Source: an uncultured delta proteobacterium
Lineage (GTDB): Bacteria > Desulfobacterota > Syntrophia > Syntrophales > UBA2185
Reading direction: 5' to 3'
Length of the DNA: 64,000 nucleotides
Assembly: GCA_963695875.1 (NCBI GenBank)
Contig: CAVOID010000014.1
Coordinates: 1 to 64,000, forward strand
Shown here in pieces: positions 986 through 55,376 of this stretch (position 1 is its first letter; the number at the start of each line of letters is the position of its first letter). The notes beneath the pieces are model-generated. The model saw only the letters and a list, made by a program, of their open reading frames with translations. It was not told the origin of the DNA and ran no database searches. The position numbers and the translations under genes are program-made.

Positions 986-2404
986 ATGAACCTGAAAGAA
1001 CTAATCAAATATTCCAAGGATAAGCATCTGGAATTCATCGACCTGAAATTTACGGATATCCCGGGTTTGTGGCAGCATATCACGATCCCGATCCAGCAGT
1101 TGGACGAGGATCTTGGTCATCCATGGTATCGGTTTCGACGGCTCCAGCATCCGGGGATTCCAGCCCATCAACGAGAGCGACATGCTGATCAAGCCGGACA
1201 CGGAGACGGCGTTCATCGATCCGTTTATGGCGGATCCCACACTGAGCATGATCTGTAACGTCAAGGACCCCCTCACCCAGGTGCCGTATTCACGGGACCC
1301 GCGGAATGTGGGGCAGAAGGCGGAGAGATACCTTTCCGTCTGCGGGATCGCGGATCAGGTCTTTTTCGGTCCGGAGCCGGAGTTTTATATTTTTGACGAT
1401 GTGCGGTTTGAGCAGACTTACAATACGGGATTTTACAGGGTCGATTCCAAGGAGGGTTTCTGGAATACTGCAAGGGACGAAGGGCCCGAATCTCGGATAC
1501 AAGCCCCGGTACAAGGAAGGCTACTTTCCGGTGCCGCCCACGGACAGCCTTCAGAACCTCAGGGCGAAGATGTGCAAGGTGATGACGGAGGTCGGCATCC
1601 CGGTCATCCTCCATCACCATGAAGTGGCCACGGCAGGGCAGTGCGAGATCGGGGTCAGGATCAATACCCTTGTGGATACGGGGGACATGCTCATGAAGTA
1701 CAAGTATGTGGTGAAGAATGTCGCTTTAGCCCACGGGAAGACGGTAACGTTCATGCCAAAGCCGCTCTTCATGGACAACGGTTCCGGGATGCACGTTCAT
1801 CAGAGCCTCTGGAAGAACGGGAGGAACCTCTTTTACGATACCAGCGGCTACGGGGGGATCAGCAAGCTCTGCAGACACTATATCGGCGGCCTCCTGCACC
1901 ATGCGCCGTCGCTTCTGGCCTTTACGTCTCCCACGACAAACTCATACCGGAGACTTGTTCCGGGGTATGAGGCGCCGATCAATCTTGTATACTCACAGCG
2001 GAACCGGAGCGCCTGCGTCCGGATTCCCATGTATTCTCCGAGCGGAAAAGGCCAAAAGGATAGAGTTCCGCTGTCCCGACTGTTCCTGTAACCCCTACCT
2101 GGCGCTTTCTGCGATGCTCATGGCGGGCTTGGACGGGATCGAGAACGAGATCGAGCCGCCGCCTCCCATCGATGAGGACATCTATGAACTTTCCCATGAG
2201 GAGAAAGCACACATCAAGGCGACGCCCGGGTCACTCTCCGAGGTCCTGGACGCCCTGGAGAAGGAGCATAAGTACCTGTTGAAAGGTGACGTCTTCACCG
2301 AAGACCTGATCCAGATGTGGATAGAATACAAACGGAAAAGAGAGGACGACATGATCAGACTGCGTCCCCATCCTTATGAGTTTGCGCTGTACTATGACAT
2401 TTAA
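986..2404 (+). CDS. glnA: glutamine synthetase type I (GlnA); reading frame broken by about 3 single-base indels in this assembly
   Basis: GS-I homology is spread over four overlapping ORFs (977-1258, 1113-1622, 1306-2091, 1901-2404). Motifs: [54 protein letters not shown] agagagggg, then ATG at 986. Confidence 0.85.
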
Positions 2405-4284: not shown

Positions 4285-5726
4285 TTGCTCAAAATGAGAT
4301 GGAGAGACGGGGCTTTTCTTGAAATCCGTCTTGAAAAATCCGCCTTTACGAAAGGTGGGGGTGCGAAGCGAAAGATATTATTCGAGGCAGCTTTGAACAT
4401 TCTTATTGTCGATGATGAGCTGAACATTCGTAAGACCCTGTCGGTCTGTCTGGAAACGGAAGGGCACAATGTTGTTGCTGTCAGTAATTTTCAGGATGCC
4501 CTTTCTGAAAACACCCGCCGGTCATTTGACATGGCTTTTGTGGATCTCCGTCTCGGAATAGATAGCGGTCTCGACCTCATTCCTGCGCTTCTCGCAGGAT
4601 CACCATGGCTGAAGATAATCATAATTACAGCCTATGCATCAATTGACACAGCCGTAGAGGCAATAAAGCGTGGCGCTACGGATTATATCCCGAAACCCTT
4701 CACACCTGCCCAGGTAAAACTTGTCGTTCAGAAGGTCGCGGAGGTCCGTTCACTGGAACAGCGTATTGATGCACTCCAGTCAGATTTGAACCGCATCAAT
4801 CCCGAAGTAGACCTGACTACGACAAGCCCGGTAATGCAGCGGGCCATCGAGCTTGCCAAGACAGGTGGCCCCAACCGATGCGATCGTCCTGCTTGACGGG
4901 AGAGAACGGAACCGGGAAAAGTATTTTTGCGCGGGCAATTCATGGGTGGAGCAAACGGGCAGATATGCCTTTTGCCGAGATCTCATGCCCGGCACTTTCA
5001 GCGCGAGCTTTTAGAAAGTGAACTCTTCGGTCATATCAAAGGCGCCTTTACCGGTGCTGTGCGAGACCATTCCGGCCGGATTGCATTTTGTGAAGGAGGA
5101 ACGCTGTTTCTCGATGAGATCGGTGATCTCCCCCTCCCGGTTCAACCGAAGCTTCTACAGGTTTATCCAGGAAAGGGAATACGAACGTCTGGGTGACCAT
5201 GTCACACGCAAGGCAGATGTACGCCTGATCGCAGCCACAAATATGGATATTGAGGATGCCGTCAAGAATCACCGGTTTCGGGAAGATCTTTACTATCGGC
5301 TTAATGTGATTCAGATAGAAATCCCGCCGCTCCGGGAACGGCCCGATGATATTGTCAGTCTGGCCACGACGTTTACTTACTTTCTTCGGGAGGAGCCATC
5401 ACTGTGACTCCCAGCATTTTACCGAAGATGCTCTTCACGTTCTGCGCCGTTATTCCTGGCCGGGTAATGTCCGTGAATTAAGAAATGTCGTTGAAAGAGC
5501 CTCCATAATCTGCAAGTCAGAGTCAGTCGGGATCGAACATCTCCCGGAAAAGCTTCTGACTGCCGAAGAATACCCAAAACCAGGTGATCTTATTTCCCTT
5601 GATAAAATCGAAGAGATGCACATCCGCCGCGTCCTGGCATCGACTAAATCATTACAGGAAGCCGCTGAAATCCTCGGAGTTGATCAGGCTACACTCTGGC
5701 GGCGGCGGAAACGATATAATATCTGA
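4285..5726 (+). CDS. sigma-54-dependent response regulator (REC + AAA+ sigma54-activation + Fis-type HTH), frameshifted in assembly
   Basis: ORFs 4285-4896, 4927-5196, 5018-5407 and 5346-5726 together give ILIVDDE...receiver, GENGTGKS Walker [43 protein letters not shown]-terminal HTH. True start may be TTG 4393. Confidence 0.8.
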
Positions 5727-7983: not shown

Positions 7984-8067
7984 ATGGCTGATATCATTGT
8001 TCTTATGATCGGATTGTTTCTGATCGTCTATCTCTTTTTTGTGGTACTTCGTCCTGAAAAATTTTAA
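7984..8067 (+). CDS. kdpF: K+-transporting ATPase subunit F (27-aa hydrophobic peptide)
   Basis: ATG gct gat... encodes MADIIVLMIGLFLIVYLFFVVLRPEKF*, a typical KdpF C-terminus (LRPEKF), immediately upstream of kdpA. Confidence 0.7.
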   Translation: MADIIVLMIGLFLIVYLFFVVLRPEKF

Positions 8068-8113
8068 GTTTGCTCACAATATCTCAAGTTGCTTAAGGAT
8101 AGGAGAAGTTAAC

Positions 8114-9921
8114 ATGAACATTTATGGCTGGATTCAATTAACTGTCTTCATCGGCATCCTCCTTTTGCTGACGAAGCCGATAGGAGTTTATCTCACACAG
8201 GTTCTCGATCCTGAGGGAAAGACCTTTCTCGACCCGGTGCTTCGCCCTGTGGAAAGGCTGTTTTATCGGCTTTTCGGACTTGACCCGAAAAAGGAGCAGG
8301 CCTGGCAGGAGTATGCCCTGTCCCTTCTTGCCTTCAGTCTGGTGAGTCTTTTATTGACTTACGTTATCCTTCGCGTTCAGCATCTCCTGCCTCTGAACCC
8401 CCAGGGATTCGGACCGGTAAGCGAACACTTGGCCTTCAATACAGCGGTCAGTTTCACAACCAATACCAACTGGCAGAGCTATGGTGGAGAGTCTACTCTT
8501 TCGTATTTTTCGCAGATGGTCGGCCTTGTTTTCCACAACTTTACCTCCGCAGCCGTCGGAATTGCCGTGGCTGCCGCTCTGGTAAGGGGTATTGCCCAGC
8601 AGTACACTACCCGTACGATCGGCAATTTCTGGGTCGATCTTGTCCGTGTAAATCTTTATCTGCTGCTGCCGATCTCCCTTGTCTATGCCCTCTTTCTTGT
8701 ATCCCAGGGAATGATCCAGAATTTCAAGCCATACGATACGGCACAGCTTGTGGAACCCGCCGTCATTCAGGTCGCCAAGAAGGATACAGCAGGTCAGGAG
8801 ATCATGGATGCTCAGGGAAAGCCGGTCATGGAGGATCAAAAAGTTGAAACACAGACGATTGCGCAGGGACCGACGGCATCTCAGGTGGCGATCAAGATGC
8901 TGGGAACAAACGGCGGTGGATTCTTCAATGCCAACGCCTCTCATCCCTTTGAGAATCCGACACCGCTTTCCAATTTTTTGCAAATCCTGTCTATCTTTCT
9001 CATACCGAGCGGACTGACCTATTACCTGGGCCGGATGGTGAAGAACCAGCGGCACGGCTGGACAGTCTGGGGGGCGATGCTTGTTCTCTTTCTCGCAGGA
9101 GTCCTGACATGCTGGTGGGCGGAAGCAGCGGGAAACCCGAGGATGCATGCCTTGGGTGTGGATGCCAGTCGGAGGGCAACATGGAAGGGAAGGAAGTCCG
9201 CTTCGGGATATTCGGTTCCGCCCTCTTTGCCACCGTGACGACGGATGCCTCCTGCGGCGCCGTCAATGCGATGCACGATTCCTTTACGCCTCTGGGAGGC
9301 CTGATCCCGCTCTTCAATATGCAACTGGGCGAGGTCATCTTCGGCGGTGTAGGGGCCGGCCTTTACGGGATGCTCGTTTTCGTTTTACTGACGGTATTTT
9401 TAGCAGGACTGATGGTCGGGCGCACGCCTGAGTATCTGGGTAAAAAGATCGAGGCCTATGATGTGAAGGTCAGCGTATTGTTTGTGATGGTGCCTGTTTT
9501 TACCGTCCTGGGATTCACCGCCTGGGCGGCGGTGAGCGCCTGGGGTTTGGCCGGACTGAATAATACGGGCCCTCACGGTTTTAGCGAAATACTCTATGCC
9601 TTCTCATCGGCTGTCGGCAATAACGGCAGCGCCTTCGCCGGACTCACTACCAATACTTACTGGTACGACACAACAATGGGCATCGCCATGCTGCTGGGCC
9701 GCTTTTTCATGATCGTCCCGGTGCTGGCCCTCGCGGGCAGCCTGGCACAGAAGAGGCAGATCGCGACAAGCGGCGGCAGTTTCCCCGTTTCCGGCGTTAT
9801 GTTCGCTATTCTCCTCCTCGGCACCGTTCTCATCGTTGGCGCCCTGACGTTTCTCCCGGTACTGGCGCTGGGTCCCATTGTCGAGCATCTTTTGATGACC
9901 GGATCACAGATTATCTATTAA
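8114..9921 (+). CDS. kdpA: K+-transporting ATPase subunit A; one frameshift near 9170 (ccc to cc)
   Basis: RBS GGAG then ATG 8114, [15 protein letters not shown].... Homology continues from ORF 8039-9238 into ORF 9109-9921 at ...[12 protein letters not shown]. Confidence 0.9.
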
Positions 9922-12560: not shown

Positions 12561-14237
12561 ATGCCTGCCGAAAATCGTGCAGATTCTTTTTTAAGGATGA
12601 TTCGCCGAGCCCAGCGTGGTCATCTGAAAGTATACCTGGGGTATGCCGCGGGCGTGGGTAAGACCTACCGCATGCTCCAGGAGGCTCATCAGCTCAAGGA
12701 TGAAGGGATCGACGTGGTCGTGGGACTTGTGGAAACCCATGGCCGTGCAGATGTCGCCAGGCTCCTGGAAGGGCTGGAAATAATCCCCAGGCGCAGCCAG
12801 GAATACCGCGGCATCATCGTGGAAGAGATGGATGTCGATGCAATACTGGCCAGGAAACCCCAAATCGTGCTCGTCGATGAACTGGCTCATACCAATGTGC
12901 CGGGCAGTCGAAATGCAAAGAGATATCAGGATGTCCAGGACATCCTTGCCCAGGGGATTCACGTTATCACTACCTTAAATATCCAGCATTTGGAAAGCCT
13001 TTATAATATCGTCGAAACGGCATACCGGGGTGAGGGTTCATGAGCGTCTCCCTGACTCCGTTCTTGCCGAAGCAGATCAGATTGTCAACGTCGATTTGAC
13101 CACGGAGGATCTGGAAGAACGTCTGAAAGAAGGGAAAATATATCCCCTGGAACGCGTTGAAACTGCCCTATCAAACTTCTTCAAAAAATCAAACCTGGAG
13201 CAGCTCCGTGAGCTTACCCTGCGCGAACTGGCCTCTCAGATCGATCTGCGATACCGGGATGATCTGGAAGAAGAGGTTGCGGCAACACCCGATCAGGTGA
13301 TGGTATGTCTCAGCTCAAAAGGCCCTAACAGTGAAAAACTCCTCCGATACGCGTCACGACTGGCGGGCAGGCTCAACAGAAACTGGTATGCAGTCTATGT
13401 TCAGACGCCGGTCGGAGGCGCCTACGGCCATTGATGCGCGGACACAGCGTATCCTCTCCGGCACTTTGACGCTCGCGAAGCAACTAGGGGCTATTGTGTT
13501 CACCTTCAAGGGAGAGGACATTGTAAAAACGATATTGCAATTTGCCAGGGAGTACCGGGTAGGACACATCGTGATCGGCAGCCCGAGAAAAATTCCTTTC
13601 TGGAAACTCCTGCTTGGCGAACGCAGTGTCGCCGAACGTCTGATCCACGATGCCAGGGGTGTTACATGTCACTGTCCTGGATACACTGGAGCCGGGGGCA
13701 GCCATACCCCTCCCGGTGGAAGCGAAGATCATCCAGGAGGAGACTGTCCCTTCAGCGCCTCCCCCGGAAACCGTCGGCACAGACTTAAGTCACTTCATAT
13801 CCCGTAAGAGCATTGTCATCTGGGATACGCCAATAGCAAAAGACAATTTGCTCCAGAGCCTCACAGAGGCAATACGGTGTGAAAACGGAATCGAACAAAG
13901 ATTAAAGGGACTTGATGCAGTCAGAGAAAGAGAAGAACAAGGGTCAACCTTCTTTAACGAAGGAGTTGCCTTTCCCCATGCGAGAATTGAGGGTTTAAAA
14001 CGCTCGTGTGTTGCTATCGGACTGACCCATCGCGGCGTGCCCGACGTTGAGACAGAGAAACCCATTGAATGCGTATTTTTAATCTTCTCACCCGCTGATA
14101 TTCCAGATGAACAGCTTCAGATACTGGCACTGGTCAGCAAGGCCGCCCAGGACAGGCACCTGATGGACAATCTGCGATCTGCGAAAACTCCTGCTGAGGT
14201 ATACACGGCCATTCAGAACTGGGAGGCTGCCCTATAA
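12561..14237 (+). CDS. soluble KdpD N-terminal sensor domain + Usp domain + PTS EIIA(Ntr-type) domain fusion; no TM or kinase domains; frameshifted in assembly
   Basis: 12561-13043: KdpD-N (GAAGVGKTYRMLQEAH...VITTLNIQHLES). 13030-13434 and 13331-13807: Usp-like (VMVCLSSKGPNSEKLLRYA...IVIGSPRK). 13650-14237: PTS_EIIA_2-like (GVAFPHARIEGLKRSCVAIGL). Segments abut in alternating frames; the 13640 junction is consistent with a 1-nt indel. Confidence 0.75.
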
Positions 14238-41328: not shown

Positions 41329-41413
41329 CGGGTTCCAGGATAGAACGCGGAAAACCCAGGGTCCGGTGCATTTTACCCGGCGGCAGGTGCGTCGCAAAAT
41401 AAAAGGTCTAAGA

Positions 41414-42426
41414 ATGACAGCAGAAGAGACATTTGGCCCCATATGGGTATTTGCAGAGCAGGCAGAAGGACGGATCCAGGACGTTTCCCTGCAGCTCGTC
41501 GGGAAAGCCCGCAAGCTTGCCGATGCGTTGAATACGAGCGTTGAAGCCATTCTGCTGGGCAACGGAATGAAAGACCAGGTTCAATTTTTGTTCGCTGCCG
41601 GTGCAGACAGGGTTTATCTGGGGGATGCGCCGGTTCTGGCATGGTATCAACCCGAGATTTACACTGAGATGATCGTATCCCTTGCCGAAGAGAAAAAGCC
41701 GGAGATCATGCTGATAGGCTCAACGTGCACAGGCCGGGAACTGGCCCCGATGGTGGCGGCCCGTTTGAAAACCGGCCTGACCGCTCACTGTATCGATTTG
41801 AATCATCAATGAAGACCGGAATACTGGAACAGTGGATTCCGGCCTATGGAGGGCTGATATCGATTGTCTGTCCGAATAATCGCCCCCAAATGGCCACAGT
41901 GGCAGGAGGTGTTTTCCCTAGGCCCATTATGGATGAAAACCGCCAGGGCGAAATTGTCCTGCTGGATGTCCCGACCAAGATTTCGGGACTGATTCAAACT
42001 TTGCAGGTCGTCTGCCGGGAACCGGAAACCGTACCTCTGGAATCCGCAGCCATTGTGGTTGCCGGCGGTGTCGGTGCAGGGAATGAAGAGGGGTGGCAAC
42101 AGATTGCCGATTTGGCCCAAACGCTTCATGCGGCCCTTGGATGCACGCGACCGGTGGTTGACGAAGGCTGGGCCGGACATGAGGCCATGATCGGTCAAAG
42201 CGGAAAAATGGTATGCCCTGAACTGTACATCGGTATCGGTCTTTCCGGTGAGTTGCAGCATTTAATCGGTGTCGTGGGCGCCAAGGTGATGGTTGCCGTC
42301 AATAAAGATGCCAGGTCTCCCGTATTTGAACAGGTAGATTACGGTATCGTGGAGGATTGCCGGACATTTGTTCCCCTGTTGATTGAAAAGATCAAAGCGT
42401 ACCGGACAAGCTGTGCGGGAGCGTAA
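41414..42426 (+). CDS. etfA: electron-transfer flavoprotein alpha subunit (one frameshift near 41800)
   Basis: ORF 41366-41812 plus ORF 41725-42426. FAD-binding motif PELYIGIGLSGELQHLIGVVGAKVMVAVNKDARSPVF. Confidence 0.85.
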
Positions 42427-46417: not shown

Positions 46418-47366
46418 ATGGCTGGAGTCTGGATTATTTCGGAAAACCGTGAGCAAGCCCTGGAACTTTTAATATTGGCCGCGAACTTGCCGAGAAGATG
46501 GGAACGAACGTTTCCGCGCTTCTCTCGCAGGATCGTGAACGGGCGCAAGACTATATCGAAGCACGGAGCGGACGAGGTTCTGATTCTGCCCCCTCTTGCC
46601 GGTGATCAGTCCATAGATGCTTACATCCCCATTATCGTTGAAGAGGCAAAAAAAGATGATCCTGATTTGATCCTTATACCCGCCACAGCGAGAGGAAAGG
46701 ACATGGCCGCCCGCATCGCATCCCGCCTGGACACAGGCCTATGCAGCAGTTGTATGTCCATTGCCTTTGATGAGGCAAGCAAAACTTTGGTGATGGAGCG
46801 TCTGGCATACGGAGGCGCTGCCGTGCAGAAGGTGATCTGCACCACCCGGCCCGCGATGGCCACCATCCCGCCGCGGACATATGAGCCTGCCATGGCAGAG
46901 GAAGGACGGCAAGGACAGATTCGGGAGCTCCCGGCACCTCCCCCCTCAGCGGTAAAGGTCCTGGAGAGAAAGGTAAAAGAACGGGTAGCGAAAGACATTA
47001 CGGAGGCACGGGTTATTGTCTGTGTGGGAAGAGGTATGGAGAAGAAGCGAGGATCTGGCTCTTGCCCGGCAGTTGGCTGAGGCCCTGGGCGGCGAAATCG
47101 CCTGCACGCGGCCGATTGCCGAGGAGTATCACTGGCTGCCCGAAGAACTCTGCATCGGGCTTTCCGGCGTGCAGGTGAAACCTGATCTTTATTTAGGCAT
47201 CGGTGTTTCCGGACAGGTCCAGCATGTCACCGGTATCCGCAATGCCAAGGTGATCGCTGCCGTGAACAAAGATGAGAATGCCCCCATTTTCAAAGCCGCC
47301 GACTTCGGCATCGTCGGCGATCTCTATGACGTGCTGCCAAAACTTATTACCGAGTTAAAAAAGTGA
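46418..47366 (+). CDS. electron-transfer flavoprotein alpha subunit, second copy (frameshifts)
   Basis: MAGVWIISENREQALELL... C-terminal FAD motif PDLYLGIGVSGQVQHVTGIRNAKVIAAVNKDENAPIF. Confidence 0.8.
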
Positions 47367-47379
47367 AGATGGTCTTTTC

Positions 47380-47409
47380 TGTCATTGCGAACGATTGAAG
47401 AGATTGCAA
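47380..47409. repeat. REP-like element (tgtcattgcga ... gagattgcaat)
   Basis: Shares termini with the 38336, 58443 and 63013 elements. Confidence 0.4.
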
Positions 47410-47434
47410 TCCGACGAACTCGCAGATAGAAGGA

Positions 47435-48121
47435 TTGAATCATTTGACTGGCCGCAAACCATTTGTCGTCGTTGGCGTTGACCTGGCCGGGTCTGTGCAC
47501 CGTCCGTCTGGCATATGCATACTCCGTGGCCTGAAGGCCGAGACGCACATTGCCTTCAGCGACGAAGAAATTCTTCAGTGGGTCTCCCAGGCCCAGCCCG
47601 ACCTCGTTCCCATCGATGCACCGCTCAGCCTCCCCAAGGGGCGGATGACGATCCATGACCGCTCGGGTGGACATTTCCGCGATTGCGACTATGAGCTGAA
47701 GCGGCGCGGCATCCGTTTCTTCCCCATCACCCTCGGTCCGATGCGGATGTTGACCGAGCGCGGCATTGCGCTCAAAGCGAAGATAGAAGTGATGGGGTAC
47801 CGCGTGGTGGAGTGCTACCCCGGGGCGGCGCAGCATCTGTGGGGAATTCCCCGCCAGCACCGGGATCGCGCAGGCCTTCTGGCCGGACTCAGAGAACTGG
47901 GAGTGAAAGGATTGCCGGAGGCTCTGACCGGCGACGAACTGGACGCGGTGACTGCGGCCCTGGTCGGCCGGTGGTTTCTCCAAGGGAAGGGGGAACTGAT
48001 CGGCGGCGATGATGGGATCGTTATCCCTTCCGTACACCGACGAGGAGAGAGGAGCTCAACCCTGACAGACACAGCCCATGATCCGGCGGTACAGAAGAAA
48101 CTCCGGACAGTGTTGCCATGA
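47435..48121 (+). CDS. DUF429-family protein (predicted RNase-H-like fold), GC-rich (~62%) compared with its surroundings
   Basis: VVGVDLAGS...PDLVPIDAPLSLP pattern, typical of the DUF429 N-terminus. GC content is visibly higher than flanking genes. Confidence 0.55.
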   Translation: MNHLTGRKPFVVVGVDLAGSVHRPSGICILRGLKAETHIAFSDEEILQWVSQAQPDLVPIDAPLSLPKGRMTIHDRSGGHFRDCDYELKRRGIRFFPITLGPMRMLTERGIALKAKIEVMGYRVVECYPGAAQHLWGIPRQHRDRAGLLAGLRELGVKGLPEALTGDELDAVTAALVGRWFLQGKGELIGGDDGIVIPSVHRRGERSSTLTDTAHDPAVQKKLRTVLP

Positions 48122-48704
48122 CGGGCGCCGCTCCCGAAGGAGCTGCAAACCGGGCAGGTCTCCCCGGATAAGAACGTGAACTGTCGCTACACAACCGCAG
48201 CATTTACCCTATCTCCCGAATCCAGGGCTTTGTCATGTTGTGCTGACTTGCCCGGAGACTGGGCCTTGTATGCTGTTTCTGTTCGTCGGCTCATAGCTTT
48301 GCGCTCCGGCTTCCTTCGGACGGTCCCTCGCGGTTCCGCCCTTGCCTTCGGCTAGTACTTGTGTCAATGTATCATGACATTGACAGGATTCACGTACAGG
48401 GGACTTTCACCCCATAAGTTCACGCCCATGCCGGGCGTACACATAATCACTTCAGCGGATGGCCAATAGCCGCCGCTGATTTTTTCGCCAGACCAGATAG
48501 CCACGAGGAATTACCATGCATACACAGACTTACCTGAAGACATTTTGGTACCTTGAACAGCGACCCCAAGTATTTGTAGCCATGAGTTTTGCACCTCAGT
48601 ACAGCAATCCTTTCAATCAAGTTATGTCCTTCGGCTAATCAATCGCCAGTCTGCACTCCAATTAGCAGTGGGCTATCAAAAATAAGAAAAAGGTGGGAGG
48701 AAGA

Positions 48705-49900: not shown

Positions 49901-51943
49901 ATGAAAAACCTTATTGCATTATTTTCAATACTTGCGATCTTAATTGTGCCGGCTGGCTGTGCAAGTGTAACATTACCGCCTTTAATGGATGCAGCCGATA
50001 GAGGGGATATTAATGCTGTAAAAGCTTTGCTGGATAAGGGAGCGGATGTGAATGAGTGGTATTATGGTACAGCCTTGATGCAGGCATCGAGTAAAAAGAA
50101 TGCCGACATGGTGAAACTTCTGATAGACAGGGGTGCCGATGTAAATGCGATGACTCAGGGAGGATCGTCCGCCTTGGGGATTGCGGCAGAATTCGGTCAC
50201 GCCGATATAGTGGAAATTCTAATTAATAAAGGTGCTAATGTAGATAAAGCTATAATGGGTTTGAAGAAAAGAGCTATCTCCGTTGCCAACTACCCCGATA
50301 TAGTTGCTAAAGTTAACCGCGGCATTGATCTAATTAATGAAATACAAAAAAACCTTCCGAATAAGGCTGGTTGGGCGTATTATTCTAATGGACAATATCA
50401 GGAGGCGATAAATTCATTCAAGCAGGCTATTAGCTTAGACCCATCTATCAGTTTTAATTTTAGAGGCCTTTCAGCATCTTATAATGCGTTAAAGCAGTAT
50501 GATGAGGCTATAACCGCAGCAAAGAGGGCGATAGAGCTTAAGCCTGATAATGCTAATGCTTACAGCGATCTCGGCATAGCGTATTCACATAAAAAACAGT
50601 TTGACGAGGCATTAAATGCTCACCAAAAAGCTATTGAGATAGAACCAAAAAATGCAACTCTTTACACCAATATTGGCAATTTATTCCTTCAGAGGGAAGA
50701 TTATAGCAGGGCGGCAGACAATTATAAAAAGGCAGCAGTACTGACTCCGAATGACACAAGACCCCTGTTTGCCCTTGCAAACACATACAGACAGATGGGC
50801 AGATACGATGATGCATTTGAGCCAGCAAATAAGGCAATTGCATTGATGACTATAACCGGAGTGGGCTTGGGAATCGCAATTGAGGGGGATTACCCCGTTG
50901 TGCGAAGACAAATAGTCGGTGAATCGGGACTAATAGAAGGACCCGCTAAAAGAGCAGGCATACAGGCAGGAGATAAAATCATCAAGATTGACGGCATACC
51001 AACAAAAAGGTGGGATATAAATAAGGTTATCCAAAATGTAAAAGGCTCAGAAGGAACACAGGTTGTCCTTACAATCGAAAGAAAGAACTTTGATAAGCCT
51101 ATAGAAAAGACACTTACAAGGGAAACGATTATCTTTAAAGACGCAGCTCCGCTTTTCGGTCTAAGAAGCCTTGCCAACAGAGAAAAAGGCAGGTTAGAAG
51201 AATCTTACAAAGATGCTGAAAAGGCATACTCCCTTGATCCGAATGACAGGTGGGCAAAGAGTGCTATGAGTATCGCGTTTATTGATAAAGGTAAATATAA
51301 CGATGCCCTAAATATCTTATCAACCATAAAAGATAGCCCCTTTGACCGCATATTTGAATCAATAGCCTACTCAAAACTTGGAGATATGAAAAAGGCGGTT
51401 GAGATGTATAGCTCAATTCAAGAAGATTATTTAGCTACCCAAAGTGCCGTGCGTCAAAGCTACAAAAAAACCCTTTTAGAATCTCTAAAGCCTTATGTCA
51501 ATGCCAGGAAAGACTCTGCGAAACTCCTTGAAAAAAAGAGTCAATACAGAGAAGCACTCAAAGAATATGCAGAGGCTCTAAAGGTTGCCGATGACAGAGA
51601 TGCGAAAGAGGTAAGAAATCGTGTTGCAGTGTTGATTAGAAACAATCCTTATCTTGCGGAACTCCCTGAAGAGGCAAGAAAGTATGCTTTAAGAGCAGAG
51701 GTCTTGCTTAAAGATGGAAATTTTAAAGAATCGCTGAATGAATTCAATTCTGCTATAAAGATAGCGCCATTTGCTCCTCAACTCTATTTCAACACAGCCC
51801 TTGTATATGGAGAACTGAAAAACTACAAATCAGCCAAAAGATATATGAACATCTATATTGACCTTTATCCCGCTGCACCAAACATCCGCCAGGTGAAGGA
51901 CGAGATTTACAAATGGGAATTTATGATGGAGAAAGGTAAATGA
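49901..51943 (+). CDS. lipoprotein with ankyrin repeats + TPR repeats + central PDZ domain
   Basis: Lipobox VPAGC; ankyrin repeats (DINAVKALLDKGADVN; ADMVKLLIDRGADVNA; HADIVEILINKGANVD); TPR blocks; PDZ (GLGIAIEGDYPVVRRQIVGESGLIEGPAKRAGIQAGDKIIKIDG). Confidence 0.7.
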   Translation: MKNLIALFSILAILIVPAGCASVTLPPLMDAADRGDINAVKALLDKGADVNEWYYGTALMQASSKKNADMVKLLIDRGADVNAMTQGGSSALGIAAEFGHADIVEILINKGANVDKAIMGLKKRAISVANYPDIVAKVNRGIDLINEIQKNLPNKAGWAYYSNGQYQEAINSFKQAISLDPSISFNFRGLSASYNALKQYDEAITAAKRAIELKPDNANAYSDLGIAYSHKKQFDEALNAHQKAIEIEPKNATLYTNIGNLFLQREDYSRAADNYKKAAVLTPNDTRPLFALANTYRQMGRYDDAFEPANKAIALMTITGVGLGIAIEGDYPVVRRQIVGESGLIEGPAKRAGIQAGDKIIKIDGIPTKRWDINKVIQNVKGSEGTQVVLTIERKNFDKPIEKTLTRETIIFKDAAPLFGLRSLANREKGRLEESYKDAEKAYSLDPNDRWAKSAMSIAFIDKGKYNDALNILSTIKDSPFDRIFESIAYSKLGDMKKAVEMYSSIQEDYLATQSAVRQSYKKTLLESLKPYVNARKDSAKLLEKKSQYREALKEYAEALKVADDRDAKEVRNRVAVLIRNNPYLAELPEEARKYALRAEVLLKDGNFKESLNEFNSAIKIAPFAPQLYFNTALVYGELKNYKSAKRYMNIYIDLYPAAPNIRQVKDEIYKWEFMMEKGK

Positions 51944-52731
51944 TAGGCAAGGGAAAAACAGGTATGTATATTCTACCAGTTCTCCTTTTGGTAATCTTTT
52001 GTGGTATCACTTACGCACAGGATTCCGATGTACAGAAGAATAACTGGCTGCTTGGCGTGATATTTAAGCTGGAAAGGATGAAGGACAATTCAGTGGCAGA
52101 TATTCAGAAATGCGAGCGTGAGATTCAGAAATCTGAAAGCACTATCAGAAAATCTGAAGATATTATAAGACAGGCACAACAAAAAGGTAATGCGCAGGCT
52201 GAAATGATTGCGCGTCAGGCGTTAACAACAGCACAAGAGGCAAAGAGAAAAAATGAGATACTGAAACAGGAGGCCGAAAAGAGAAAAAGTAAAGCAGAAC
52301 TGGCTAAAGCAAGCGTGAGCGATACGCTTGCAAAACAACTAAACCTGCCAGAGGAAACAAAAGAATCCTCAGCTAAAGACAATACAGGACTGACTTTGCC
52401 GCCTTATTTTGACGAGGGAGCGCCGCCGGTTGATTGCAATAAAGCATTAAAACAACTCGATAATCCGAACTGCAAATGTTTGGCTGCTAATAGGGCGCCT
52501 GTATGCCCTGGAAAAGGCATGAAATTGCCGCACGAAGAAGAAATAACTTATGTTTTTTACTGGAATATTGCATTTACTACAGAAGGCAGACATTACTTAA
52601 ATGATGGCGTTTATTTTGGAAAGCATGACTCCTACGATAAAGCATTTAAGGCTTGTCAGGAAGATGCTAAGAATAGAAGTCATGTGGATTTTGTAGATCA
52701 TGTTCAGAAAATTAATTGCATACCGCAATAA
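51940..52731 (+). CDS. secreted hypothetical protein with coiled coil and Cys-rich C-terminal domain
   Basis: ATGA overlap with the upstream gene; signal peptide; 8 Cys in the C-terminal 110 aa. Confidence 0.55.
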   Translation: MIGKGKTGMYILPVLLLVIFCGITYAQDSDVQKNNWLLGVIFKLERMKDNSVADIQKCEREIQKSESTIRKSEDIIRQAQQKGNAQAEMIARQALTTAQEAKRKNEILKQEAEKRKSKAELAKASVSDTLAKQLNLPEETKESSAKDNTGLTLPPYFDEGAPPVDCNKALKQLDNPNCKCLAANRAPVCPGKGMKLPHEEEITYVFYWNIAFTTEGRHYLNDGVYFGKHDSYDKAFKACQEDAKNRSHVDFVDHVQKINCIPQ

Positions 52732-52762: not shown

Positions 52763-54341
52763 CTATAGAAAACAGTACGGATCTTTCTCTCTGAAAATAT
52801 CGAGGCCGTGACTGTAAGCATTCGCAAGACAGCCCCCGCACACGTAACGAAGAGGGCATGACCGGCATTCGGCACATCCAGCGCGATAGCGACGCGCGAT
52901 TTCTGAGTCGTATATCTCCCCGATTCTCTGGTCGAATACGTTTCCTATGGGAGAAGGAAACTTCCTGCAGGCATGAACCTCGCCGTCGGCTAGAATGGCG
53001 ACGAAATTGAATGCGGCCCCGCAACCGAAGCCGGTACAGCCGCCAAAGGGTTCCAGACCTTTCCGATACTTGAGGATGTTGATGAGGTTATCCTTCAAGC
53101 CTAAAACAGGGTTTTTACCATAGGCCTCAAGGTACGCTTTCAAGGAAAGACATATATTCCTGCTTTGTCGGAAGTTCAAGGCTCGCCCCTTCACCCACCT
53201 TCGAAAGACGATTGAAATAAAAAACATCCGTCTTCCCGCGCAGCAATTCACCAAGGGGGATAACCTGGTGGATGTTGTCTTTCGTCACGGTGAGCATCAC
53301 CATCGTATAGACTCCCAGTTCACGGAGTATTTCGAGAAAACGCATGGATCTTTCGAAGTGACCTTCTCCCCGGATGAAATCATTGTATTCAGGCAAACCC
53401 TCCAGACTCAACTGAAAAAAATCGGGCTGCTGGATGGAACACAGTGCCTCAACCTGTTCACGGGTTGAGGGATTTCCCAGGACGGACAGGGTAAAACCAC
53501 GGTCAGCGGCAGCCTTGTATATGGATAGAAATTCCGGATGAAGAAGGGGATTACCGCCGGTGAATGATACCCGCCCCTTCACGTGGCGCTCCCGGCAAAA
53601 GATATCGAGGTCATCGATGATTGTGAGTGCCTGCTCAAGTGTCAGCGCGGATCGATCACTCCGGTCATAGCAGTGTTTGCAATGAAGGTCGCAGGCCTGC
53701 GTGATATGCCACTGAAGGACGAATACCGATGACGTAAGAAAGTGTTTGCTCGTGTCAGGTGATGCTTCGTCAAGATCGCGCCGGATACGTGATAGCGGTG
53801 CAATGATGATTCCTCTGTCCACGGCACGATCCATGGCCGCATCAACCGCGAAGATCGGCAGCGTGCCTATTCGCGCCACCTCCCGCCTGTCGATGCCCTC
53901 AAATATCATCTTGAGAATGAGGAGATCCTCCAGTGAGGCAGCCTTCATATGAAGGCCGCCGTCTTCCGGATATTTCCATATCAGGACATATTCGTTTCCC
54001 GGTTCCGGAGCCTGTGGAGATAGAGATGTCACATTATCCACAAGGTTTTTCCATTGAAGCTCAAGTAAAATGAGTGTGGGATTGATGGCCATCTCCTCCG
54101 GATCACCGGGTATGGATACACTATTTTCTTTTACCCGGAAGATATTCCATTCAAGGCGGGCAAGTTCAGCAAGAAATTCAGGAAGGCGGGCATGAGGACC
54201 AAAATAGCTGATGATTTCAGGAAAGTTATCCGGTTTGTTATTCAGGTCATGGCTGGAAATGATCTGCTGCCATATGTCGGGATCAAGAAGGGAGCGACAT
54301 CGGGGATAAATGGCTGCAATGTCACTCTTTGAAGGGTTCAT
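52763..54341 (-). CDS. radical SAM / SPASM-domain enzyme with ~190-aa N-terminal extension (RiPP-maturase-like); split by one frameshift near 53200
   Basis: ORF 53127-54341 has CDLHCKHCY (CxxxCxxC) after a 190-aa N-domain. ORF 52763-53254 supplies the SPASM Cys-rich C-terminus (GCGAAFNFVAILADGEVHACR...AGCAECRSCPLRYVCGGC). Confidence 0.85.
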
Positions 54342-54476
54342 CGATGCTTTTTTGAAACAGGCAAAGGATGGCGCATCTCCTATCGCACTCGTTTTTCACT
54401 TTATCTTCCTGCATGGTTTTCAGGGGAATGAACGCCTCAGTCCCTAAAAGCAATACAGGGGGGAAATTGTTTTTGA

Positions 54477-54626
54477 TAGTGCAAACTGCACTATTACTTT
54501 GTACCGCCTCAGCTGCTTCCCGGCTTAGCCGGCTGTTCCGTTGGGGTGCTACCTGCACCCGGTTTCGTACCGCTTCAGCTGCTACCGGGCTTGGCCGGTT
54601 GTTCTTTCTGGATGCCACCTGCATCC
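54477..54626 (-). promoter_or_regulatory. three SECIS-like hairpins, 14-15 nt downstream of each in-frame UGA
   Basis: GGATGC-AGGUG-GCATCC (54626-54610), GGGTGC-AGGUA-GCACCC (54560-54544), TAGTGCA-GUU-TGCACTA (54493-54477). The first two differ by a compensatory A-U to G-C pair. The loop GCAGGU...GCACC resembles the E. coli fdhF SECIS apex. Confidence 0.5.
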
Positions 54627-54748
54627 GGTTTCGTCCCAGTTCAACTGCTGGCCTTTTGCGCACAACCAGACACCATAAGAGCCGAACCGGAAATGAGGGA
54701 GGCCAGGCAGAGCCCTGCAAGAATCTTTTTCAGTTGATCACTGTCCAT
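54491..54748 (-). CDS. candidate selenoprotein: lipoprotein-signal peptide followed by three 22-codon repeats, each containing an in-frame UGA (putative Sec)
   Basis: RBS AAGGAGG + 5 nt + ATG (54748). MDSDQLKKILAGLCLASLISGSALMVSGC AQKASS-UGA-TGTKPDAGGIQKEQPAKPGSS-UGA-SGTKPGAGSTPTEQPAKPGSS-UGA-GGTK-TAA-TAG. UGA codons at 54643-41, 54577-75, 54511-09. Confidence 0.5.
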
Positions 54749-54912
54749 GTTAACCTCCTTAAACGCCAGTCCATCCTTTGCCTGTGTTATTATGAGGAAG
54801 TATTATTGATCCTGTCAAGGAAGATTTCGGTTCCAACAAACTTAGGAAAATGGTCTTGACAAATTGAAAGCTTTTGCATACACTGTAATACAATAATTAC
54901 AAGAGGTGCATC

Positions 54913-55131
54913 ATGAGTACAGCAATATCCATAAGATTACCGGAAGATTTAGCCAAGCAGCTCGACAATATCGCCAAAGAAACAGAGAGGCCTCGTTCCT
55001 TCATCGTACAAAAGGCCCTGGAGTCATACTTGGAGGACTATGCTGATCTCCAGGTGGCTCTTGACAGACTTCACGACAAAGCCGACCCTATCATATCCAG
55101 CAAAAAGATGAGGGAGTCTCTTGGCCTATAA
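54913..55131 (+). CDS. type II antitoxin, RelB/ParD-like ribbon-helix-helix
   Basis: 72-aa ORF MSTAISIRLPEDLAKQLDNIAKETERPRSFIVQKALESYLEDYAD... Confidence 0.7.
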   Translation: MSTAISIRLPEDLAKQLDNIAKETERPRSFIVQKALESYLEDYADLQVALDRLHDKADPIISSKKMRESLGL

Positions 55132-55376
55132 TATCGTTTACAAAAAATCTGTTTCGAGAGATTTGAATAAGCTTGCCAAAGCGGAAGCGGCTCGAATATT
55201 AAATCAAATTGAAAAGGTGCTTTTAAGAATCCCGAATCTTATCTATCCTTAAAAGGTAAATTTGCAGGACTGCGCAAATTCCGTATTGGTGACTATAGAA
55301 TAATATATGCCATATCGCGATATGATGTCATTATTTTCAGAATTGGTCACGGGAAAAGACCATTTAAAAAAGAATG
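55121..55376 (+). CDS. type II toxin RelE/ParE family (one frameshift: cctt versus ccttt near 55247)
   Basis: TTG 55121 overlaps the antitoxin 3' end. MAYNIVYKKSVSRDLNKL...RIPNLIYP / LKGKFAGLRKFRIGDYRIIYAISRYDVIIFRIGHGKRPF. Confidence 0.7.

Follow-up and report, generated by a model that had tools for sequence, protein, structure and literature searches.

The SbtA/SbtM pair was predicted as a 'selenobiotic' system by Haft and Basu in 2011, and the SbtM enzyme of Geobacter was characterised by Lewis et al. (Biochemistry 2021); in vitro it removes four hydrogens from Gly-Cys or Gly-selenocysteine to give a thio- or seleno-oxazole (PMC9204691, section 5; PMC11002830). The system was thought to be limited to Geobacter and Desulfobacteria (PMC9204691). 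We analysed a 64,000-nt stretch of DNA from an uncultured delta proteobacterium (GenBank assembly GCA_963695875.1, contig CAVOID010000014.1, positions 1 to 64,000; hereafter the window), in which a small gene with three in-frame UGA codons lies directly 5' of a gene for a radical S-adenosylmethionine (SAM)/SPASM enzyme. This locus is very probably an sbtA-sbtM operon, a system once named 'selenobiotic' and now described as a thio(seleno)oxazole system of the RiPP type (peptides that ribosomes synthesise and that are modified after translation), and the three UGAs almost certainly encode selenocysteine (Sec, U) in a real small gene. To our knowledge, no selenium-containing RiPP class other than SbtA/SbtM is installed by a radical SAM enzyme.

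With the described pairs the locus shares the gene order (a small precursor directly 5' of a radical SAM/SPASM maturase), several UGA-encoded Sec residues in a Gly/Ser-rich core with selenocysteine insertion sequence (SECIS) elements directly downstream, and a maturase that combines an N-terminal domain, a CxxxCxxC motif and SPASM. It differs in detail. Three Sec are present against the 'at least two' of the literature, the context is S-S-U-[TSG]-G rather than the 'GGUG' quoted for Geobacter (a Ser carbonyl, not Gly), sbtM is frameshifted in the assembly, and the host is a Syntrophaceae-like deltaproteobacterium.

The hairpins can be compared with the SelB-binding SECIS of E. coli fdhF. Both are stem-loops shortly 3' of the UGA, with one element per UGA, an apex of GC-AGGU...GCACC and G and U in the loop; the fdhF sequence given in a preliminary description of this DNA proved exact when checked in 5,419 E. 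coli genomes. The SbtA elements, which are putative SelB sites, are minimal (6-8 bp stem, 3-5 nt loop) and have no long lower stem, and three of them stand in tandem in a 255-nt gene, the last across and beyond the stop codon. Eukaryotic selenoprotein P likewise carries several Sec in one polypeptide, but its SECIS elements lie in the 3' untranslated region and act at a distance, whereas each SbtA UGA has an adjacent element and the Sec count of SbtA changes by duplication or loss of a UGA-plus-SECIS cassette. Finally, the N-terminal domain of SbtM resembles the TglHI or DUF692-DUF2063 (MbnBC-like) systems in predicted fold, at 13-18% identity; its partner is a fused radical SAM/SPASM enzyme and not a DUF692 di- or tri-iron enzyme.

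An sbtA-sbtM pair in the window

Both genes were recognised by curated profile hidden Markov models (HMMs). Residues 1-26 of the small protein match positions 1-26 of 27 of NCBIfam TIGR04081 (SbtA) with 45.4 bits (cutoff 30.5). The maturase matches TIGR04082 (SbtM, cutoff 350) in two pieces, an N-terminal one with 481.8 bits (profile 1-394, residues 11-402) and a C-terminal one with 216.7 bits (profile 376-516). SbtM also contains PF04055 Radical_SAM (67 bits), PF13186 SPASM (38.8 bits) and TIGR04085 (46.6 bits), and its CxxxCxxC motif, C217-D-L-H-C221-K-H-C224, is invariant in alignments. sbtA (54748-54494) lies directly upstream of sbtM (start 54341), both on the minus strand. Since both equivalog models match above their cutoffs, the system is already known, and the locus adds no new kind; it is a typical member of a described, partly characterised and HMM-curated family. 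The precursor/maturase pairing proposed in the preliminary description was therefore correct and its 'reminiscent of SbtA/SbtM' can be replaced by direct membership, while the novelty that it implied is lost, the features in question being typical of the family.

The start of sbtA was as first described, with a ribosome-binding site AAGGAGG, a 5-nt spacer and an ATG at 54748, followed by a signal-like sequence ending LMVSG-C. The start region reads A[AT]GGAGG[TG]TAAC-ATG in six orthologous loci, and the promoter-like sequence upstream is identical in the closest relative, L001. The product is MDSDQLKKILAGLCLASLISGSALMVSGCAQKASS-U-TGTKPDAGGIQKEQPAKPGSS-U-SGTKPGAGSTPTEQPAKPGSS-U-GGTK, then TAA and TAG (54496-54491, minus strand): a signal-like N-terminus and a Pro/Gly/Thr/Lys-rich remainder broken by three TGA codons. 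These are exactly 66 nt apart, the period given by Tandem Repeats Finder, and each follows Ser-Ser, as had been noted. Each 66-nt unit consists of one UGA and its own hairpin. Hairpins 1 and 2 were found where they had been placed, their stems differing by the reported compensatory change (A-U in one, G-C in the other). The third was present as well, at 14 nt from its UGA rather than the 15 nt obtained earlier with a 7-bp stem; it overlaps the TAA-TAG stops and extends into non-coding sequence. Coordinates are collected in Table 1.

Table 1. Features of the sbtA-sbtM locus and frameshift-split genes of the window
Feature	Position	Strand	Basis
Promoter-like site, sigma-70-type, upstream of sbtA	54789..54818	-	TTGACA, 18 nt, CATAAT; 11/12 consensus matches; consensus match only
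Ribosome-binding site AAGGAGG, 5-nt spacer to ATG	54754..54760	-	Read from sequence
sbtA, 84 codons, three UGA (Sec), ATG at 54748	54494..54748	-	Translation; TIGR04081 match; co-linear orthologues
SbtA leader, lipoprotein-type signal peptide (n-region with KK, hydrophobic core, lipobox VSG-C, Cys29)	54662..54748	-	Sequence
66-nt tandem repeat, 2.3 copies	54501..54649	-	Tandem Repeats Finder: period 66, 80% matches, score 186
UGA 1 (Sec36)	54641..54643	-	Sequence; invariant in six orthologues
SECIS-like hairpin 1, GGAUGC-AGGUG-GCAUCC	54610..54626	-	Fold; 14 nt after UGA 1; encodes ...DAGGIQ
UGA 2 (Sec58)	54575..54577	-	Sequence; six-way alignment
SECIS-like hairpin 2, GGGUGC-AGGUA-GCACCC	54544..54560	-	Fold; 14 nt after UGA 2; fits family consensus
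UGA 3 (Sec80)	54509..54511	-	Sequence; six-way alignment
SECIS-like hairpin 3, AUAGUGCA-GUU-UGCACUAU	54476..54494	-	Fold; 14 nt after UGA 3
sbtM, radical SAM/SPASM thio(seleno)oxazole maturase (frameshift-split)	52763..54341	-	TIGR04082, Pfam; two frames in assembly; consecutive open reading frames, one profile
SbtM N-terminal domain, ~200 aa	53730..54341	-	Predicted DUF2063/TglI-like module with RiPP recognition element
glnA (frameshift-split)	1113-2404		Consecutive open reading frames, one profile
kdpA (frameshift-split)	8039-9921		Consecutive open reading frames, one profile
kdpD (frameshift-split)	12561-14237		Consecutive open reading frames, one profile
ETF-alpha (frameshift-split)	41366-42426		Consecutive open reading frames, one profile

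For comparison, loci were gathered through an alignment of SbtM homologues: 80 from species-representative genomes (of at least 570 that matched), a second set of 80 from metagenomes, and the loci of the two closest proteins. An SbtA-type leader stood upstream of sbtM in about 73 of the 80 species-genome loci and 67 of the 80 metagenome loci (about 140 of 160). SbtA in related loci typically has one to four UGAs. Of the 67 distinct SbtAs in the species-genome set, 8 had no Sec, 11 had one, 20 two, 25 three and 2 four, so that three is the modal count. The residue at -2 is Ser at 84% of sites and that at -1 is Ser, Gly or Ala (49%, 36% and 15%); +1 is S, G or T, and +2 is Gly at 93%. Given these frequencies, the SS-U-[TSG]-G of the window follows the family consensus S-[SGA]-U-[SGT]-G, set in a Gly/Ser-rich core with Sec or Cys, and is no departure from it. 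Two differences from SbtA/SbtM that had been perceived at first, in the repeated SS-U units and in the N-terminal extension of the maturase, thus disappeared, the extension being covered by the SbtM profile.

In a six-way alignment of orthologous DNA all three TGAs are invariant, and the peptide is co-linear with the three-U orthologues of the nearest clade (L003, L004, L018 and L047; SbtM identity 72-75%), which have the same three-unit layout. Cys-only members of the family also exist (TSCSG repeats), and where one relative has Sec another can have Cys at the homologous position, as in TTSUSGSQGAGGT and TTSCSGTQGAGGT. Such exchange is a classic mark of a genuine Sec site. The invariant TGAs, the exchange with Cys and the association of hairpins with UGA described below all support the tri-selenocysteine reading that had been proposed for this gene.

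Evidence weighing against the assignment

A number of observations weigh against this reading. Taken singly, the three hairpins of sbtA are not thermodynamically significant (z -1.1 to -1.7), and Rfam returned no SECIS family, either for the whole window at the gathering threshold or for 54400-54800 at E <= 10 (SCARNA6, its only hit in that interval, was rejected as spurious). No tRNA-Sec, selA, selB or selD was seen in the 64 kb, which contain no tRNA at all. The alignment used for the covariation analysis was drawn from sites pre-selected for a hairpin, 88% of sites having qualified. sbtM is frameshifted in the assembly, so the system could be inactive in the source organism. The residue before Sec is Ser here and Gly in the only substrate tested (PMC9204691). 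Lastly, export and lipidation of SbtA are read from sequence motifs, and the conservation of its leader could reflect recognition by SbtM alone.

TGA is moreover the commonest ordinary stop in the window, ending 15 of the 33 open reading frames (ORFs) of at least 250 codons, in line with what had been said of its use there. Since single hairpins are unexceptional and TGA is so common a stop, the case for recoding must rest on sequence comparison, and it was for the former reason that the tests described below are comparative. A search of the window for other UGA sites with SECIS-like elements, or for other genes with the look of selenoproteins read through a UGA, found the motif only in sbtA.

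The frameshift in sbtM

The maturase gene, taken at first for one intact ORF, lies in two ORFs, at 53127-54341 and 52763-53254, owing to a 1-nt frameshift near 53138-53145 (...TTCCTTGAAAGCG...). With one base removed it encodes an SbtM of 525 aa whose identity is 97% to P0001 and 91% to P0002, two proteins named 'selenobiotic family peptide radical SAM maturase' at source. Both are intact (527-528 aa) and read FLERYLEA or FLKAYLEA at the junction. An exact-protein lookup of the truncated window SbtM gave no match.

If the frameshift were real, the locus would be a decaying, non-functional remnant and SbtA would stay unmodified. The indel relative to intact orthologues is what such a remnant would show, and L001 has a private 1-nt deletion of its own, in sbtA. 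Against this, glnA, kdpA, kdpD and the ETF-alpha gene are split in the same way in the window, with consecutive ORFs matching consecutive parts of one profile, which points to indels in the assembly and not to pseudogenes. The sbtA gene is unbroken and runs co-linear with its orthologues, which validate its reading frame, and both halves of SbtM are highly conserved, as the identity to P0001 shows. We therefore regard a remnant as unlikely, though it is the strongest of the alternatives. Because several housekeeping genes within 64 kb are likewise broken, the sbtM frameshift is probably an assembly indel error. The pattern suggests an indel-prone assembly, possibly a long-read metagenome-assembled genome (MAG), rather than real pseudogenes.

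Hairpins accompany UGA codons and covary

Hairpins were scored when they reached -6 kcal/mol or lower and started 8-26 nt downstream of the site. By this measure 87.7% of the 163 UGA sites in the first set were followed by a hairpin, most often at 14 nt, compared with 10.4% of 48 Cys-codon sites and 7.7% of shuffled sequences (Mann-Whitney p = 4e-18). The independent metagenome set gave the same picture, with a hairpin at 93% of 142 UGA sites and 3% of 31 Cys sites. Cys-type SbtA cores have neither the motif nor the hairpin.

These results bear directly on the simplest objection, that the UGAs are ordinary stops, the product a signal-like peptide of 35 residues, and the repeats and hairpins non-coding elements such as attenuators for sbtM. 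The frequency of TGA stops in the window, the lack of visible Sec machinery there and the behaviour of gene callers, which end the gene at the first TGA, all speak for it. However, more than 130 loci conserve the frame, the spacing and the S-[SGA]-U-[SGT]-G surroundings through each of their UGAs, Cys codons stand in place of UGA at homologous sites, and homologues with Cys alone can be read without a break; the hairpins go with UGA and not with Cys codons. They also lack T-tracts, and no terminator-like site was predicted between sbtA and sbtM. Termination at these codons is thus very improbable.

Covariation was examined in an ungapped alignment of 112 distinct hairpins, four outliers of 116 having been dropped as their loops did not fit the 5-nt register. 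The consensus is nCnGGUGC-AGGUn-GCACCnAn. G10 in the apical loop is invariant, and the loops read AGGUG, AGGUA, GGU and GUU. Double-sided stem changes numbered 159, as against 73 +/- 9 in column shuffles (none of 500 reached 159) and at most 29 when partners were slid. The covariation score was 0.418 compared with 0.181 for shuffled columns (again reached by none of 500) and at most 0.156 for the slid controls. Pair types vary while pairing is kept, with GC, UA and CG at one stem position and GC and AU at another. Individual cases can be followed within the nearest clade: in L003, GGAUGC/GCAUCC of hairpin 1 is replaced by GGACGC/GCGUCC, and L018 shows a G-U intermediate, while UAGUGCA/UGCACUA of hairpin 3 becomes UAGCGCA/UGCGCUA in L018. 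The comparison of orthologues that the preliminary description had called for thus found the UGAs kept, Cys as the alternative and covarying stems.

A by-product of selection on a G-A-G-G/S-T peptide motif, or of tandem duplication, might imitate SECIS elements, given that the internal hairpins lie in coding sequence for DAGG or GAGS(T) and that unit 2 repeats unit 1 with 80% identity. The hairpins of terminal UGAs speak against this. Across the family they lie across or beyond the stop codon, share the core GUGC-AGKU-GCAC and covary, so their conservation does not come from the peptide motif. Together with the absence of motif and hairpin from Cys-type cores and the exchange of GC, AU, UA and CG pairs with pairing kept, this leaves the by-product explanation scarcely credible. 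That the TGAs are sequencing or assembly artefacts, or that an alternative code reads UGA as Trp or Gly, is effectively refuted despite the clear indel errors in the assembly, because the same three TGAs recur in independent assemblies from other samples and species and because the long window ORFs ending in TGA indicate the standard genetic code.

Leader, maturase domain and proposed pathway

The SbtA leader, MDSDQLKK-ILAGLCLASLISGSALM-VSG-C (the N-terminus as a whole being MDSDQLKKILAGLCLASLISGSALMVSG-C), fits a positive n-region, a hydrophobic core and the lipobox [LVI][ASTVI][GAS]C. A Cys at position 26-30 after a hydrophobic region was found in about 61 of 70 distinct SbtAs; the others have mostly Ala-X-Ala-like sites. 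The leader (LKKILAGL...) is far better conserved than usual signal peptides, over several phyla, which would fit its being recognised by SbtM as well.

One clade (L041, L043, L048, L121-L125, L132 and L150) has no lipobox Cys. Its first Sec directly follows a signal-cleavage-like site, Ala-Ala-Ser-Ser (...LTFAASS-U-GG...), and its C-terminal tail is long, free of Sec and rich in Lys and Glu.

A fold search with the N-terminal domain of SbtM gave a winged helix of three strands followed by three helices, like known leader-binding domains; a sequence-profile search of the PDB with the same domain gave no meaningful hit. On the strength of the fold we predict leader recognition of the RiPP recognition element (RRE) type.

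SECIS elements of the GC-AGGUR-GC type recruit SelB carrying Sec-tRNA(Sec). In the pathway that we envisage, sbtA would be transcribed from the sigma-70-type promoter, probably together with sbtM. The comparative data suggest that the three UGAs would then be read as Sec, each through its own SECIS 14 nt on with a GC-AGGUR-GC apex. In the cytoplasm SbtM would bind the leader, M-D-x-x-x-L-K-K-I-L-A-G-L..., through its predicted RRE-type domain. Its radical SAM/SPASM core might next oxidise each X-Sec by four hydrogens to a 5-selenooxazole incorporating the carbonyl of the preceding residue; this step is extrapolated from the Geobacter orthologue in vitro, and the residue concerned is Ser here and Gly in the characterised substrate. 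Export and anchoring by a lipid at Cys29, probable because the leader has the signal features of a VSG-C lipobox, would finally yield a surface lipopeptide of about 55 residues, rich in Pro, Gly, Thr and Lys and bearing three selenium heterocycles. A redox or metal-binding role for this product is a guess.

More generally, we tentatively propose that SbtA products are exported, lipid-anchored poly-selenooxazole peptides and not diffusible ones, that the leader doubles as a signal and is read by a DUF2063/TglI-like RRE, and that the number of heterocycles is tuned by gain and loss of the 66-nt cassette; we put the chances of this proposal slightly below even. The unit number is three in the window and apparently two in a relative with a 97% identical SbtM. 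We did not find any part of this proposal stated in the accessible literature, nor the modal count of three Sec, the near parity of Ser and Gly at -1, the duplicable 66-nt SECIS cassette, the lipobox, the DUF2063/TglI-like RRE or the wide phyletic spread.

The locus is a clean and typical example of the very small number of bacterial genes known to have several selenocysteines. The native SbtA product probably carries two to four selenooxazoles rather than one, and the residue before Sec is about as often Ser as Gly. With one minimal SECIS per Sec, SbtA offers a natural test-bed for tandem Sec insertion. SbtA is probably a surface lipoprotein; if this is true, the search for its function moves away from secreted antibiotics.

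Variation among related loci

Labels of the MAGs that contain sbtAM include Gammaproteobacteria, Nitrospirota/Thermodesulfovibrionia, Planctomycetota, Acidobacteria and Chloroflexota (e.g. L014, L022, L045, L055, L063 and L069), with binning errors possible. PMC9204691 gives a narrower range, 'Geobacter and Desulfobacteria', and sbtAM is accordingly found well beyond those groups. The best SbtM-locus match in the GTDB species set was 73-75% identical, and in metagenomes, where a near-identical copy was sought, the best match reached only 68%. No conserved neighbour gene (protease, transporter or selenium metabolism) was found, the best flanking cluster occurring in 9 of 80 loci; as no other gene is conserved beside it, the sbtAM pair appears to be a self-contained two-gene module.

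L001, the closest full-length relative (91% SbtM identity, ENA ERZ25039602), has one base fewer in repeat unit 2 (4810-4825), reading GCTAGCC where the window reads GCTAAGCC, and its third TGA is therefore out of frame. The deletion, unique among the six orthologues, is an assembly error or a private mutation. In L002 (1-75), the relative with 97% identity (JGI 3300067036, contig Ga0619417_02244295), TGA-GGTGGTACAAAG-TAA-TAG comes straight after the tail of unit 1, as if SbtA here had two Sec and were short of one 66-nt unit; since the repeat runs off the end of the contig, collapse or truncation is also possible.

Six loci (L023, L024, L032, L035, L038 and L064) have two UGAs 2-6 codons apart (UNGU, USSU, USGKTSU, UGGGGSGU) with a single hairpin after them, so that one SECIS would serve two UGAs at different distances. 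Two different sbtA genes stand in tandem before a single sbtM in L072 (1819-2500), and the MAG RPRI01 (L005-L008) has at least four copies of sbtAM, whose precursors are identical and have two Sec each.

The spacer between sbtA and sbtM (window 54342-54493, minus strand, about 150 nt) is conserved in close relatives (...CCCCTGTATTGCTTTTAGGGAC...) and folds as a long stem, imperfectly paired (z -1.9). No Shine-Dalgarno sequence is obvious for sbtM. The spacer may control how much precursor is made relative to enzyme.

Neighbourhood of the locus

Convergent with sbtM are two genes on the plus strand (49901-52731) that are not conserved beside sbtAM in other loci. One product is a lipoprotein of 680 aa in which ankyrin, TPR and PDZ (C-terminal-processing-peptidase-like) regions occur, and the other is a secreted protein of 263 aa, rich in Cys, that matched no family. 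Divergently upstream of sbtA lie genes for a 72-aa RHH antitoxin and for a toxin resembling ParE (54913-55252, plus strand), syntenic with L001. The ParE ORF has 43 aa in the window and 86 aa in L001 and is thus truncated or frameshifted. About 6 kb from the operon there is a mobile element, a group II intron, whose RNA domain (48173-48337, minus strand) matches Rfam RF02001 with 137.9 bits and has ORFs nearby at 47324-48121.

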